IMG/VR virus record: IMGVR_UViG_3300035701_000015
Span: 1-12,008 of that record
Source of the DNA: a virus
Taxonomy: Duplodnaviria > Heunggongvirae > Uroviricota > Caudoviricetes
Direction: 5' to 3' (one strand)
DNA length: 12,008 nucleotides
Shown here: positions 2,591-12,008 of the stretch, piece after piece
How positions within the stretch are numbered: position 1 is the stretch's first letter
Layout: the number at the start of each line of letters is the position of its first letter
Notes under the pieces: generated by a model
What the model was told of the DNA's origin: nothing
Databases searched by the model: none
What the model saw: the letters and a program-made list of their open reading frames with translations, nothing else
Position numbers and translations under genes: made by a program

Positions 2591-3148
2591 ATGGTTTGTG
2601 AAAACTGTGGCAAAGACCATAATGGTAGCTATGGGTCAGGCAGGTTCTGCTCTGGGCCATGTGCTAGATGTTTCAGTACAAAAAACAATAGAGACGAGAT
2701 AAATAGAAAAGTATCTGTTAGTCTCGGTGGAACCGGAGAAACAAAAGAAACAATCTGTGAAAATTGTGGCACTCAATTTCGTAGAAAAAACAAGAACGCT
2801 AAATACTGTTCTTTGAGTTGTCAGCATGCACATCAATGGGAATTGTATAAAAGAAAAGTAGAACTCATTGGTAGTTTTGAAATTAGTTTAAATGGTAGCG
2901 GCTCAAAAAGAGCCAAGAAGTATTTAGCAGAAGTGAGAAGCGATAAATGCGAAATTTGTGGTATTACAGATTGGTTAAGTAAACCACTAATCAAAGTTTT
3001 AGATCATATAGACGGAGATGCTATAAATAACAAACTAGACAATCTCAGATTACTTTGTTCAAATTGTGATAGCCAGCTTGAAACATATAAAAGTAAAAAC
3101 AGAAAGAGTAAAAGATTGTATAGACGTAGAATCGATAAAAGCTTATAA
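2591..3148 (+). CDS. Free-standing HNH endonuclease with N-terminal Zn-binding repeats (probable homing endonuclease)
   Basis: Two CxxC...CxxxC units, then CEICG...LDHIDGDAINNKLDNLRLLCSNC. Lies between two tRNA genes. Confidence 0.88.
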   Translation: MVCENCGKDHNGSYGSGRFCSGPCARCFSTKNNRDEINRKVSVSLGGTGETKETICENCGTQFRRKNKNAKYCSLSCQHAHQWELYKRKVELIGSFEISLNGSGSKRAKKYLAEVRSDKCEICGITDWLSKPLIKVLDHIDGDAINNKLDNLRLLCSNCDSQLETYKSKNRKSKRLYRRRIDKSL

Positions 3149-3249: not shown

Positions 3250-3945
3250 ATGATTTACTTAACGGGCGATACTCATTCTGATGTTAGAAGGTTTAGTAGT
3301 GAAGTGTTCCCTGCTGGTAAAGATTTAACCAAAAGAGATTATATGATTATTCTCGGTGACTTCGGTCTCATTTGGAATAAAGACGTCTCAAGTGATTATG
3401 AAAAATATTGGATTAATTGGTTAAGCGAGAAACCTTGGACTACTCTTTTTCTTGATGGAAATCACGAGAACTTTGATAGACTCGATAAGTTGCCGCAAAT
3501 GAAAATGCTTAGTGGTGAAGTTGGAATTGTCAGCGATAGCATATTTCATCTCAAAAGAGGGGAGATTTATAATATTGAAGGTATCAGACTTTTTACATTT
3601 GGAGGAGCCAACTCTATTGATAAAGCCCAAAGAGTTGAGAATGTTAGTTGGTGGTCTAGAGAGCTTCCAAATTTTGCAGAGTATGATCACGCTTTAGAGA
3701 ATTTAGAAAAACATGATTGGGACGTAAATTTGATATTGACTCATGACGCACCAGAATCAATTTACGATATTATAGCTCAAAAATATTTTTCTACTAAAAG
3801 ACCAAACTATGATTTGCCCAAGTTTCTTGAAGAAGTAAAAAAGAAAACTCAATTTGAGTCTTGGGTCTTTGGACACTTTCATATTAATGATACTTTTGAA
3901 AAACGTTTTACGTGTTTGTATGAAAAAATTGTTTTGTTAGAATAA
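3250..3945 (+). CDS. Calcineurin-like metallophosphoesterase
   Basis: Motifs GDTH, GDFG, GNHENF, THDAP and FGHFH. SD AAGGTG. Confidence 0.92.
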   Translation: MIYLTGDTHSDVRRFSSEVFPAGKDLTKRDYMIILGDFGLIWNKDVSSDYEKYWINWLSEKPWTTLFLDGNHENFDRLDKLPQMKMLSGEVGIVSDSIFHLKRGEIYNIEGIRLFTFGGANSIDKAQRVENVSWWSRELPNFAEYDHALENLEKHDWDVNLILTHDAPESIYDIIAQKYFSTKRPNYDLPKFLEEVKKKTQFESWVFGHFHINDTFEKRFTCLYEKIVLLE

Positions 3946-6429: not shown

Positions 6430-7401
6430 ATGGGACTAACATATAAAGACACTGGAGTCGACATCGATAAGGGTGATCAGTTTGTAGAGATCATCAAGAA
6501 GAGGCTTCCTCCGAAAGATCAAGCTAACATTGGTCTATTCGGAGGACTCTTCGATATATCTTCTCTCGGTTATAAAAATCCCGTTCTTGTTTCAAGCACT
6601 GATGGCGTTGGCACAAAGTTGCTCGTCGCACGAGAAGCAAATAAGTTCGACGCTATTGGAATTGACCTCGTTGCTATGTGTGTAAATGATGTGATACCAC
6701 TTGGAGCGAAGCCACTCTTTTTCCTTGATTACCTCGCAACCGCTTATCTCGACCTTGAAACAGCTACAACAATTATTGATGGTATTTTAGAAGGATGTCG
6801 CCAAGCAGGGTGCTCTCTCCTCGGTGGTGAAACTGCTGAGATGCCGGGTGTATATAGAGAAGGTGATTATGAGCTCGCAGGTTTCACAGTTGGAATTGTA
6901 GAACGAGACAAGATCATTTACGGAAAGACGATCATCGAGGGAGATGCTCTTGTTGGAATACGCTCGAGCGGAATTCATAGCAACGGGCTCAGTCTTGCAA
7001 GAGCAGCGCTAGTAAATTTTAAATTTGAAGAGTCTTTATTACAAGAGCTCCTCGTTCCTACTCGCATTTACGTAAAGCTTGTTCTCGATCTCCTTACGAA
7101 AACAGAAATAAAAGGAATTGCCCACATAACAGGTGGCGGAATTTACGGAAATACAAAAAGACTTTTACCTAAAAATCTTGATCTTAACATTCACTGGGAC
7201 ATCTTACAACCGCAACCGATTTTCAAAATCTTGCAAGAAGCGGGCAATATTGAAGACGAAGAGATGAGGAAAACTTTCAATCTCGGCGTCGGGATGGTAT
7301 TCATTGTAAATCTTGAAAAAGAAAAAGAGTTCTGTTCTCTCCTCACCGAGATGGGAGAAGAGCCAATTTCAATTGGTGAAGTTGTGAAACAGCATATATA
7401 A
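6430..7401 (+). CDS. purM: Phosphoribosylformylglycinamidine cyclo-ligase (AIR synthetase)
   Basis: Motifs YKDTGVDID, STDGVGTK, GIDLVAMCVND, PLFFLDY, GGETAEMPG, GIHSNGLSL, AHITGGG and TFNLGVG. Confidence 0.97.
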   Translation: MGLTYKDTGVDIDKGDQFVEIIKKRLPPKDQANIGLFGGLFDISSLGYKNPVLVSSTDGVGTKLLVAREANKFDAIGIDLVAMCVNDVIPLGAKPLFFLDYLATAYLDLETATTIIDGILEGCRQAGCSLLGGETAEMPGVYREGDYELAGFTVGIVERDKIIYGKTIIEGDALVGIRSSGIHSNGLSLARAALVNFKFEESLLQELLVPTRIYVKLVLDLLTKTEIKGIAHITGGGIYGNTKRLLPKNLDLNIHWDILQPQPIFKILQEAGNIEDEEMRKTFNLGVGMVFIVNLEKEKEFCSLLTEMGEEPISIGEVVKQHI

Positions 7402-7639: not shown

Positions 7640-8578
7640 ATGATGGTACACATTTTTTATCACAATAAAGATTTAGATGGACATTGTTCTGGAGCTATTG
7701 CAAAATACTACCATTTACAAAGTGGCACTTCGGTAGTTATGCACCCATATGATTATGGTGAGCCTTTCCCATTCGACAAAGTTCAAGATGGCTTAGACGT
7801 ATGGATGGTTGATATAACTTCTAGTCCATATGAAGTTCTGCTAGAAGTTCGCAAAAGATACAACCTTTTCGTCATCGACCATCACAAATCTTTCATCGAA
7901 AGCGAAGTCTGTAAAAAGATACCTGGTGTATTTGTAAACGGAACTGCAGCTTGTGAGCTAACTTGGAATCATTGTTTTCCAGACACAATGATGCCAAACA
8001 TAGTTCATAGACTCGCTCAGTATGATATCTGGGACAATAAGGACAAAAACATTTGGGACAAAGAGATAATGCCTCATCAAATGGGCATAAAGATGTATAA
8101 TACTGATCCGAGCGATGTTGTCGGATATGGCTTTTGGAAAAATTACTTCGACGACTTTTTCCGAAAACCTGAAGACGATCTAACTCCGAAGTTTGTTGCA
8201 ATAGAAGACGCAATAAGGAAAACTGGAACTACTATCATTAAATATCAAGGTCAAGAAGACGACAACACTGTTGGTTTTTATTCGTTCCCGGCTGAGTTTG
8301 AAGACATGAGAGCTATTTGTCTTAATAGCGCAAGATTCAATTCACAAGTATTCAAATCAGTTTGGGATAATGAAAAGTATGACATTATGCTTGCTTGGGT
8401 CAGCGTGAAAGGCGACTATTATAAAGTTTCACTTTATACCGACAAAGAAGGAATTGACGTAAGTAATATAGCAAAGAGATTTGGTGGCGGCGGTCACAAA
8501 CAAGCTGCTGGATTCATATGCCACAAGTTTTCAATAAGCAAATCCAGAGGAATTAAATTCATAACTGTAGAACCGTAG
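7640..8578 (+). CDS. DHH/DHHA1 family phosphoesterase (NrnA/NrnB-like)
   Basis: Motifs HNKDLDG, VDIT, IDHH, YDIW and GGGGHKQAAGF. SD GGGAG. Confidence 0.92.
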   Translation: MMVHIFYHNKDLDGHCSGAIAKYYHLQSGTSVVMHPYDYGEPFPFDKVQDGLDVWMVDITSSPYEVLLEVRKRYNLFVIDHHKSFIESEVCKKIPGVFVNGTAACELTWNHCFPDTMMPNIVHRLAQYDIWDNKDKNIWDKEIMPHQMGIKMYNTDPSDVVGYGFWKNYFDDFFRKPEDDLTPKFVAIEDAIRKTGTTIIKYQGQEDDNTVGFYSFPAEFEDMRAICLNSARFNSQVFKSVWDNEKYDIMLAWVSVKGDYYKVSLYTDKEGIDVSNIAKRFGGGGHKQAAGFICHKFSISKSRGIKFITVEP

Positions 8579-8588
8579 AGGTTAATAT

Positions 8589-9467
8589 ATGATTCCAGTT
8601 TTAAACGTGAAGGGAAAGACTTTACCTGAAGCTTATGAAAACTCTTTGATAGAACTTTATCGAAGCGGCGAAAGAATTAAAACTCAATACGACAATCCTG
8701 ACGATCTGCCTTCTGTAGATGCAACTGTAAACATAACAATTGAAGAACCTGAAGCAGACCCTATGATTTATAAAATCTTTCCTGGTGGAATCGAAGATCT
8801 TCGTGAATATGTGATGGAGCTTCAAGGCGCAAAAGATCACTGGGTCAAGAATATGAACGATCCAGAAGATAAACGTTGGGAATATACTTATCATCAAAGA
8901 TTAGTTGCTTGGGGGACCTGGAAAGAGAGCAACAAAATAGTGTCAATAACTAGACCGGTGAATCAATTTCAGGCAATGATTAAAAAACTTATTGATGCAC
9001 CTTATACACGCAGAGCTCAGGCTGTTACTTGGATGCCGTCTTTAGATAACATCGTCTACGATCCGCCCTGTTTGCAGTCAATCTGGTGTAGATTAACAGA
9101 CGAACTAGATGGTACATTAGCTCTGAACGCAAATATTAGGTTCCGAAGCAACGACGCCTGGGGCGCTGCATTTATGAACATGTTTGGTTTGACCATGCTC
9201 ATCAGATTAGAGATAGCTAACCCAGTTGAAGAAAGTTTAGGTAAACCGGTGAAGCTGGGTAGGATTAACTGGCAAGCTGATAGTTATCATGTTTACGGCA
9301 AAGATATCAAAGCTCTTGTGCAAAGAGTCATTAATAATTTCAAACCTCTTACTGAGAAAGTATATTATTTTTACAGTCCTGAAGTTCAAGAGATCTGGAA
9401 AGAAGCTTCATCTAAGATTAAGGATAAAATTAGAAAATACGACGAAGAGCATTCACTGGGGGAATAA
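8589..9467 (+). CDS. Thymidylate synthase (ThyA) superfamily enzyme, divergent/archaeal-like type
   Basis: Motifs YTYHQRL, RRAQAVTW, PPCLQ (catalytic Cys), FRSNDAWGAAFMN and DSYHVY. SD GAGGT. Confidence 0.88.
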   Translation: MIPVLNVKGKTLPEAYENSLIELYRSGERIKTQYDNPDDLPSVDATVNITIEEPEADPMIYKIFPGGIEDLREYVMELQGAKDHWVKNMNDPEDKRWEYTYHQRLVAWGTWKESNKIVSITRPVNQFQAMIKKLIDAPYTRRAQAVTWMPSLDNIVYDPPCLQSIWCRLTDELDGTLALNANIRFRSNDAWGAAFMNMFGLTMLIRLEIANPVEESLGKPVKLGRINWQADSYHVYGKDIKALVQRVINNFKPLTEKVYYFYSPEVQEIWKEASSKIKDKIRKYDEEHSLGE

Positions 9468-11137: not shown

Positions 11138-11218
11138 ATGTTGAAACAGTTAGCAATCTGGCACATATCGCTACCTCTCCCAAGATATAATATCGAAGGT
11201 GGAGTAGCAAGTGGATAG
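11138..11218 (+). CDS. Candidate leader peptide MLKQLAIWHISLPLPRYNIEGGVASG (26 aa)
   Basis: AGGAG at 11123-11127. The stop codon abuts an antiterminator arm. Contains one ATA codon (11165-11167). Confidence 0.45.
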   Translation: MLKQLAIWHISLPLPRYNIEGGVASG

Positions 11219-11249
11219 GGCAGAGAGCTATCTGTAGATTTGAGTTTAA

Positions 11250-11286
11250 AGCTCTCTGCTAAAAGATTTAGTAGAGAGCTTTTTTT
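11250..11286 (+). terminator. Intrinsic terminator with a competing upstream pairing
   Basis: 14-bp stem 11250-11263/11267-11280 plus T6. The 5' arm can instead pair with GGCAGAGAGCT (11219-11229). Confidence 0.85.
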
Positions 11287-11314
11287 GTTGATAGTTTCGA
11301 TGCATTATTATAAT
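11285..11314 (+). promoter_or_regulatory. Sigma70-type promoter for the tRNA-Ile/tRNA-Asn/RNase P RNA unit
   Basis: TATAAT at 11309-11314, with TTGTTG (18-nt spacer) or TTGATA (15-nt spacer) as the -35. Confidence 0.5.
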
Positions 11315-11344
11315 TATATTCAGACGGTCTCGGTCTTTGAAATA

Positions 11345-11417
11345 CCTCGGGTAGCTTAAAGGTTAAAGCAGGCTCCTTATAAGGGCAAGAGTGGTGGTTC
11401 AATTCCATCTCCGAGGA
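11345..11417 (+). tRNA. tRNA-Ile(TAT)
   Basis: CCTCGGG/TCCGAGG acceptor, A73. D-stem GCTT/AAGC. Anticodon loop CTTATAA (TAT at 11378-11380) on a stem with a G27-A43 mismatch. T-loop TTCAATT. Confidence 0.85.
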
Positions 11418-11426
11418 CATCCCACC

Positions 11427-11471
11427 GCCCTTGGCTATTTAAACTCCGCCAGTCAGTCTACAGCTGAGGGC
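11427..11471 (+). other. Inter-tRNA hairpin
   Basis: GCCCTTGGCT/AGCTGAGGGC 10-bp stem (2 G-U pairs) with a 25-nt loop. Confidence 0.45.
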
Positions 11472-11477
11472 ACTCTT

Positions 11478-11549
11478 TCCCCTGTAGCTCAACGGTAGAG
11501 CGTCTGCCTGTTAAGCAGTTGGTTGCAGGTTCGATTCCTGCTGGGGGAG
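11478..11549 (+). tRNA. tRNA-Asn(GTT)
   Basis: TCCCCTG/TGGGGGA acceptor, G73. Anticodon loop CTGTTAA. T-loop TTCGATT. Confidence 0.95.
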
Positions 11550-11604
11550 CAGATCTAATGCTAGCCTAAATTATGAAGAGTTAGCTTAGATAATTAAATT
11601 GATG

Positions 11605-11687
11605 GAGTGTTTGGCTGAAAGTCCTAGACTATATTATGAATCTAAATTTGCTGGCGTTAGCTAGCTCGGGAAGTAGGCGAAACACTC
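11605..11687 (+). ncRNA. Unassigned structured element upstream of the RNase P RNA
   Basis: 8-bp closing stem GAGTGTTT/AAACACTC, inner CCTA/TAGG pairing and a GCTGGC-GTTA-GCTAGC hairpin. Confidence 0.4.
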
Positions 11688-11709
11688 ATTTTAAGAAGAA
11701 ACAGAAAAT

Positions 11710-11903
11710 AACTCTGAGCCATCGCTGTAGTAGCAATACTACAGAGGAAACTCCAGACATCACTGCTTAATGTGGGAGGCTAACGCCGCTATCACCACAG
11801 AGGATGCAACACAAACAGACTGAGAGGGTGAGCAGCTCTATGAAGTCGGGTAGTGGCATTAGATAGATGATGGCATAAAACAGAATCTGGGTTATTCAGA
11901 GTT
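11710..11903 (+). ncRNA. rnpB: Minimal RNase P RNA (about 194 nt)
   Basis: P1 11710-11717/11896-11903. P2 GCCATC/GATGGC. P3 8-bp hairpin with GCAA loop. CR-I GAGGAAACTCC and CR-V AACAGAATCTGGGTTA form P4 with a bulged U. CR-IV AGATAGATGA. CR-II/III-like ATGCAACACAAACAGAC and GGTGAGCAG. Confidence 0.9.
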
Positions 11904-11915
11904 TAGGTTGAGCTG

Positions 11916-12008
11916 ATGCAGGGAATCTATATTATCAAAAACAAAGTAAATAAAAAAGCCTACATCGGCTCTTCTATTACAATTGAAGATAGACTTGAAA
12001 GACATAAA
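11916..12008 (+). CDS. GIY-YIG endonuclease (N-terminal part, runs off the window)
   Basis: MQGIYIIKNKVNKKAYIGSS...RLERH contains the GIY, YIG and conserved Arg signature. Confidence 0.88.
   Translation, partial: MQGIYIIKNKVNKKAYIGSSITIEDRLERHK

Follow-up and report, generated by a model that had tools for sequence, protein, structure and literature searches.

Introduction

RNase P RNA is regarded as a universal housekeeping ribozyme of the cell. The locus described here raises the question of whether a phage can carry a ribozyme of this kind as well, at about half the usual size, and of what use it would be to the virus. We analysed a stretch of 12,008 nt, below called the window, with which a 77.6-kb IMG/VR virus record of 39% estimated completeness begins. 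A first-pass annotation, made from the sequence, had proposed an RNase P RNA close to the 3' end of the window, at the end of a group of tRNA genes.

In the full-text literature that was searched, nothing describes an RNase P RNA encoded by a phage, but most subscription journals fall outside of it and the word "undescribed" is provisional. The P finder paper (PMC7191817) mentions no virus, and the only viral precedent found in the literature searched is the RNase P-like RNA of orthopoxviruses, treated in PMC3001073.

Results

The locus and its match to bacterial RNase P RNA

The RNA of the window is a discrete element of about 195 nt on the plus strand (11709 or 11710 to 11903), and the Rfam model RF00010 (RNaseP_bact_a) spans it end to end, from model position 1 to 367, with 53.5 bits and an E-value of 9e-16 in a search of 459 nt, or 3.7e-17 when the whole 77.6-kb record is searched. 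The match appears with E-value reporting; at the curated thresholds of Rfam the window yields only ten tRNAs, and the score is about half of the 100 bits that are the gathering threshold of RF00010. The covariance-model check that had been suggested earlier has thus a divided outcome, with an E-value of about 1e-16 over the full length of the model on one side and a score below the cut-off on the other, and the low score would count against reading the region as a functional gene. Within the RNase P clan, the bacterial class A model is the best match (lower-scoring clan matches are suppressed in the output), and its alignment skips P18 and most of the specificity domain. The fold of the stretch beats 200 of 200 shuffled sequences (z -4.1). 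The minimum free energy fold of the single sequence has several helices wrong, and its helix 11785-11793/11849-11857 was dropped as the relatives do not conserve it. All features of the locus are listed in Table 1.

Table 1. Features in and around the miniature RNase P RNA gene, in window coordinates
Feature	Position	Strand	Remarks
Terminator-like hairpin	11248-11282	+	Consensus scan only
Sigma-70-like promoter, putative	11288-11317	+	Consensus scan only
tRNA-Ile(UAU)	11345-11418	+	ARAGORN and Rfam tRNA; CCA not encoded
tRNA-Asn(GUU)	11478-11550	+	ARAGORN and Rfam tRNA; CCA not encoded
Spacer, tRNA-Asn to P RNA	11551-11708	+	158 nt; two stable hairpins; MFE -41.1 kcal/mol, z -2.95
Miniature RNase P RNA gene	11709-11908	+	Structured part 11710-11903; RF00010 model 1-367, 53.5 bits
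P1	11710-11717 / 11896-11903	+	8/8 pairs in window
P2	11718-11723 / 11869-11874	+	Both-sided changes in 6/6 pairs; 97.4% paired
P3 hairpin	11725-11732 / 11737-11744	+	8 bp, GCAA tetraloop; four outer pairs all covary
CR-I and P4 5' strand (AGGAAACUCCAGA)	11745-11757	+	U11752 bulged; GAGGAA..UC at least 97% conserved
P4 pseudoknot	11749-11751, 11753-11757 / 11886-11893	+	8/8 paired in window; 7/8 covary; 97.3% paired (54 sequences)
P5	11758-11761 (CAUC) / 11803-11806	+	Second sample: 4/4 pairs covary, 99% paired
P6 pseudoknot	11763-11769 (CUGCUUA) / 11829-11835 (UGAGCAG, L17 loop)	+	96.9% paired
Reduced specificity module	11771-11799	+	29 nt; helix, conserved loop residues and small hairpin
S-module helix	11771-11775 / 11795-11799	+	5 bp; 4/5 pairs covary
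S-module hairpin	11778-11780 / 11785-11787	+	2/3 pairs covary
J5/15 CAA	11807-11809	+	RF00010 aligns it to model GCAA; conserved
P15-P16-P17 arm	11810-11857	+	RF00010 aligns it to its own P15-P17 and CGGGUA; 11/11 pairs covary
P15	11810-11812 / 11853-11855	+	
P16	11818-11821 / 11844-11847	+	
P17	11823-11826 / 11836-11839	+	
J16/15 GGGUA	11848-11852	+	RF00010 aligns it to model CGGGUa; GGU nearly invariant
CR-IV (AGAUAGAUG)	11861-11870	+	AGA..AUG at least 97% conserved; aligned to model uAGAugAAUG
CR-V and P4 3' strand (AACAGAAUCUGGGUUA)	11879-11894	+	ACAGAA and closing UA conserved; pairs with 11749-11757
GIY-YIG/NUMOD3 homing-endonuclease gene, start	11916-12008	+	PF01541 E 1.2e-11, PF07460 E 5.7e-5 (full ORF from record)

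Relatives of the RNA in other phages

Neither the region nor the whole window matched any of 50,697 GenBank phage records in blastn searches, and a strict P4 pattern gave no match either. A degenerate pattern of CR-I and CR-V led to two IMG/VR contigs with the same compact layout, and a first family pattern, made of the blocks common to the first three sequences, gave 25 loci with 17 distinct true members, five or six of the 25 matches being due to chance. It took degenerate patterns, or searches with other members of the family, to reach the relatives. The first pattern fixed three blocks (CAUCA..GCUUAA and GGAUGCAA), and the invariance of these in alignments A1 and A2 is an artefact of the search. 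A second, independent pattern without these blocks was built from L17, CR-IV and CR-V only, and gave at least 80 loci. Alignment A2, an unbiased MAFFT alignment of 13 members with no structural input, was the source of a family covariance model, R1, which scores the window RNA at 181 bits (the window being part of the R1 seed) and detects at least 56 matches, at least 54 of them distinct, at 50-192 bits in the IMG/VR phage contigs reached with the two patterns.

The members are about 190-320 nt long, and twelve of the loci are on contigs of more than 200 kb, the largest of 527 kb. Members are also present in huge-phage records that stand in GenBank without annotation: LR756502.1 of 642 kb (L197 1460-1667, 127 bits with R1), LR756501.1 of 735 kb (L198 1482-1710, 121 bits) and LR756503.1, where the member is known from blastn alone, by a match identical to that of LR756501.1. 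A candidate was found in a cultured phage, Stenotrophomonas phage vB_SmaS-DLP_6 (KU682439.2:105772-106018; L196 1300-1546), as an unannotated element of 247 nt between a hypothetical gene and a tRNA-Arg gene. It scores 55.5 bits with R1, has no match to RF00010 at an E-value of 0.01, and keeps P1-P5, CR-I, CR-IV, CR-V and the small module that stands in for the specificity domain, while its P15-P17 region differs; on this sequence evidence we list it as a candidate member only. In 185,579 cellular genomes the first pattern had 84 matches, and all of the 80 that were examined are chance matches, as none fits R1. In the collections searched the family is confined to phages.

Some members have insertions. 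A P18-like insert is seen in some relatives (e.g. L012, L016, L147 and L163), and one member (L011, minus strand, about 11147-11817) has an insert of roughly 620 nt inside the P3 loop, flanked by the two halves of a long P3 stem, which encodes an HNH endonuclease. The suspicion that this is a broken copy was rejected, the RNase P RNA being intact around what is a mobile element or else an intron of the ribozyme gene. In L144 and L189, P16-P17 are missing and replaced. In L150, L136 and L179 it is the 5' half that is degenerate. These incomplete members could be pseudogenes, split genes or the sites of further insertions.

Secondary structure and covariation

The structure that was tested is drawn by hand and has 48 pairs; P1 was tested apart because its register shifts slightly among the members. 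In A2, 94.6% of the cells are paired, whereas controls with the 3' partners shifted by 1-3 columns reach 33-42%. Changes on both sides are seen in 32 of the 48 pairs, and on each of the five measures all of 500 shuffles fall short. The homologue alignment with covariation that had been proposed as a check could be made with 54 distinct sequences from the two independent search patterns (alignment A4), and it speaks clearly for the structure: 94.8% of the cells are paired and 40 of the 48 pairs covary, which 0 of 500 shuffles reach. The pseudoknots P4 and P6 lie outside the search model, and their covariation is therefore free of model bias. The first sample shows no variation in P5 because the search pattern itself fixed it, and the covariation of P5 comes from the independent second sample. 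For P1, the cognate end duplexes of 50 relatives average -8.3 kcal/mol and the non-cognate ones -2.4 kcal/mol (p 1e-20). The P3 hairpin has GNRA or UNCG loops in the relatives and is 10-57 nt long. P6 joins J5/7 with the loop of P17, and both of its variable pairs covary (CG 27/UA 19 and UA 30/AU 9/CG 8).

All helices drawn are fully paired in the window RNA, and all of the core residues that are at least 90-97% conserved in the family are found in it: GAGGAA..UC, GCAA of J5/15, GGUGAGC of L17, GGU of J16/15, AGA..AUG, ACAGAA and the closing UA. The catalytic domain retained consists of P1-P5, the P4 and P6 pseudoknots, P15-P17, CR-I, CR-IV, CR-V, J5/15 and the GGU of J16/15. P18 is absent, with 5 nt only between P15 and CR-IV.

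The core helices P1, P2, P3 and P4 with its bulged U had been drawn correctly by the first-pass annotation, and they covary in the relatives. It had also seen a swapped pair beside the bulge; the C-G pair is real and compensated, and what was called a swap is ordinary variation in the family (CG 21, GC 14, UG 11). A helix 11760-11768/11848-11856, supposed to lead into the specificity domain, had to be abandoned, since it is paired in 84.6% of the cells compared to 81.8% in shuffled controls and shows no covariation; its strands belong to P6 (11763-11769), J16/15 (11848-11852) and the 3' strand of P15 (11853-11855). Of the losses that had been listed, those of P13/P14 and P18 are borne out, whereas P6, P15, P16 and P17 are present according to the RF00010 alignment and the covariation. 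The bare core that such losses implied is not what we see: the catalytic domain is nearly complete, and P6, P15-P17 and the CCA-binding GGU are kept.

The window RNA is a true and conserved homologue of RNase P RNA. Its fold is kept by compensatory change in at least 54 phage sequences, and purifying selection acts on this fold as well as on residues known for the active site and for contact with the 3' end of the substrate. This bears on the notion that the region is the decaying remnant of a captured host rnpB, or resembles RNase P RNA by chance. The score below the Rfam gathering threshold, and the parts that are missing in the incomplete members, would fit such a notion, but an E-value of about 1e-16, the intact helices of the window RNA and one and the same reduced architecture, kept by compensatory change in 54 divergent sequences when none of 500 shuffles does as well, contradict it and make it very improbable.

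The reduced specificity module

P7-P14 are missing, and in their place, between P6 and the 3' strand of P5, is a module of 29 nt, in which conservation is at least 97% at G11775, A11777, G11778, A11794 and C11795 (G-AG and A-C). The inner hairpin of the module, which invariant purines flank, has 8 nt at its smallest and grows to 108 nt in the relatives, as P12 does in cellular RNase P RNAs. The loss of P18 and P8 means that the known L18-P8 and L8-P4 contacts, by which the domains dock, are lost too.

Strands similar to CR-II and CR-III, the region that binds the T-loop, had been claimed to remain here, but they are not recognisable: RF00010 leaves the module unaligned in the window and also in the long relatives L127 and L176. 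The related idea, that about 6 nt stand where P12 would be, is partly upheld, as the inner hairpin does expand like P12, while homology of the module to CR-II/CR-III is, judged by the alignments, unproven.

A module that is strongly conserved in this way (G-AG and A-C), and unlike CR-II/CR-III, could belong to an active ribozyme with a changed range of substrates, in which it would steer the enzyme to tRNA-like RNAs, to polycistronic phage transcripts, or to phage pre-tRNAs over those of the host. We find this improbable, as the tRNAs of the phage are canonical (the ten tRNA genes in the window score 52-73 bits on the Rfam tRNA model), most family members are located in ordinary tRNA arrays, and no alternative substrate was identified.

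Genomic context

The record of the window has 42 tRNA genes, all on the plus strand and between 2.4 and 49 kb. None of the ten in the window encodes CCA, which has to be added before the conserved GGU can act. The elements recognised upstream of tRNA-Ile (11248-11317) possibly mark the start of a transcription unit of tRNA-Ile, tRNA-Asn and the RNase P RNA, as far as a consensus scan can suggest it. The spacer between tRNA-Asn and the RNase P RNA is not repeated elsewhere in the record, and its Rfam matches do not rise above noise. The sequencing runs listed for the sequence are DNA from sediment metagenomes only, with no RNA run among them.

Among the tRNA genes of the window there are also protein-coding ORFs (727-1356, 2591-3148, 3250-3945, 6430-7401, 7640-8578 and 8589-9467), and their products include two HNH endonucleases, the second of which is a weak, sub-threshold match, a metallophosphoesterase, and AIR-synthase-like, DHHA1-domain and thymidylate-synthase-like proteins. 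The GIY-YIG/NUMOD3 ORF begins 13 nt 3' of the RNase P RNA and continues to G000 12578 (L121 417-1079). Its frame crosses a tRNA-Trp gene (G000 12479-12552) before the first stop, and for this reason its annotated 3' end is probably not real.

In the family as a whole, tRNA genes are found at 40 of 54 loci. The strand of the RNase P RNA carries all of them in 38 of these 40, and six of seven in one more; the distance from the RNase P RNA to a tRNA gene is no more than 20 nt at 21 of the 54 loci. At two loci the same tRNA array holds a phage tmRNA gene as well (L005 929-1353 and L006 696-1063). What the first-pass annotation mainly proposed, an RNase P RNA of about half the normal length among the tRNA genes of a phage, is thus confirmed by the RF00010 match, the covariation in 54 relatives and the linkage to tRNA genes on the same strand.

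It was also right that no rnpA gene is near. A search for RnpA (PF00825) found none in the record of the window or in 16 related phage records, three of which are complete, whereas RnpA was recovered in this way from 10 of 14 control genomes. As the phage encodes none, a protein partner must come from the host, and the RNA could then be thought of as a sponge or regulator that has kept the surface for binding the protein and titrates or redirects host RnpA, for instance to stop the maturation of host tRNAs, and does not cut tRNA at all. The specificity domain is largely gone, which would suit such a role, and a function as decoy is discussed for the poxvirus RNase P-like RNA in PMC3001073. Against it, conservation of at least 97% extends beyond protein binding to the residues for catalysis and substrate docking (the bulged U, the adenosines of CR-I and CR-V, CAA of J5/15 and GGU of J16/15). 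The phage tRNA arrays in which the gene is located also depend on RNase P for their products, so that a block would harm the tRNAs of the phage itself. A sponge is accordingly quite unlikely in our judgement.

Discussion

Comparison with known RNase P RNAs

The phage RNA has in common with the bacterial type A RNA (rnpB, E. coli M1 RNA; RF00010) P1-P6, P15-P17, CR-I, CR-IV and CR-V, as well as the bulged U in P4, CAA of J5/15 and the GGU of J16/15 that pairs with the 3' CCA of tRNA, and its P6 pseudoknot, which joins L17 with J5/7, is a feature usual in type A and not in type B. It differs in being about 195 nt long when type A is 350-400 nt, in having no P18, in the 29-nt module that replaces P7-P14 and in which CR-II/CR-III are not recognisable, in the score of 53.5 bits compared to the cut-off of 100 bits, and in a genome that has no rnpA partner gene.

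Constructs of the C-domain, "Micro P" and the RNase P RNA of Mycoplasma fermentans show that a bacterial catalytic domain together with RnpA can cleave pre-tRNA, and P12, P13/14 and P18 are dispensable in engineered and minimal bacterial forms. These forms were made by deletion in the laboratory or, where they are cellular RNAs, measure at least 270 nt, whereas the phage family has evolved naturally and has members of about 190-320 nt.

In form, the natural RNA that comes closest to the phage RNA is that of type T, found in Thermoproteaceae (Pyrobaculum; Lai et al. 2010, cited in PMC7191817), which is about 200 nt long, is reported to be active, and has lost nearly the whole specificity domain, with P11, J11/12, J12/13 and P12. 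The reduction is of the same kind in both, but type T belongs to archaea, where an essential cellular gene encodes it and its partners are archaeal protein subunits. The phage RNA, on the other hand, has the bacterial class A model as its best clan match (lower clan matches being suppressed), a small conserved module in place of the specificity domain, and the bacterial P15-P17 arm with GGU.

The orthopoxvirus RNA, from camelpox virus, did not process pre-tRNA in vitro, according to PMC3001073. By analogy, its inactivity would count against a catalytic reading of the phage RNA. The two are different in that the poxvirus is a virus of eukaryotes and its RNA has only a loose structural similarity to RNase P RNA, while in the phage family no universal core element is missing and there is covariation.

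A proposed function

We consider it likely that a functional gene lies here, for a reduced RNase P RNA derived from type A, with which a huge and tRNA-rich phage matures the 5' ends of its tRNAs. The RNA would be transcribed on the strand of the tRNA genes, probably together with tRNA-Ile and tRNA-Asn, and its ends would be set by P1 and by the usual cuts of tRNA processing. It would then assemble with host RnpA, since the phage encodes none, and cleave the 5' leaders of the phage's own pre-tRNAs, of which the record has 42 genes. Because most of the specificity domain is gone, binding of the substrate would take place mainly via the acceptor stem, with the protein contacting the leader and GGU the 3' end, and the small conserved module may give a reduced contact with the T-arm. 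That a bacterial C-domain with RnpA cleaves pre-tRNA is in agreement with such a mechanism, and so is the reported activity of the type T RNA. Points against it are the lost docking contacts, the CR-II/CR-III region that is not recognisable, the tRNA genes of the window that encode no CCA, and the listed sequencing runs, which are all of DNA. The gain for the phage could be an extra capacity of RNase P when it floods the cell with tRNA precursors, or when the RNase P of the host is limiting.

A bolder and rather doubtful version is that the phages have evolved a structural class of RNase P RNA of their own, in which the module (G-AG and A-C with the P12-like hairpin) is a new device for recognition of the substrate and, with host RnpA or with an unrecognised phage protein, favours phage pre-tRNAs or tRNA-like RNAs. 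If so, the virus would control tRNA maturation independently of the host enzyme.

What the ribozyme would mean for large phages

The candidate in DLP_6 makes the proposed maturation of phage tRNAs directly testable in a cultured phage, and members of the family are also present, unannotated, in published genomes of 642 and 735 kb. If a phage-specific, half-sized form of RNase P RNA is real, it would be a natural minimal RNase P of the bacterial type, comparable to the archaeal type T, by which the need for the specificity domain can be gauged, and it becomes a question how a virus shares host RnpA or competes for it. The ribozyme would then join the translation-related functions of large phages, and would explain how precursors are processed in phages with dozens of tRNA genes.
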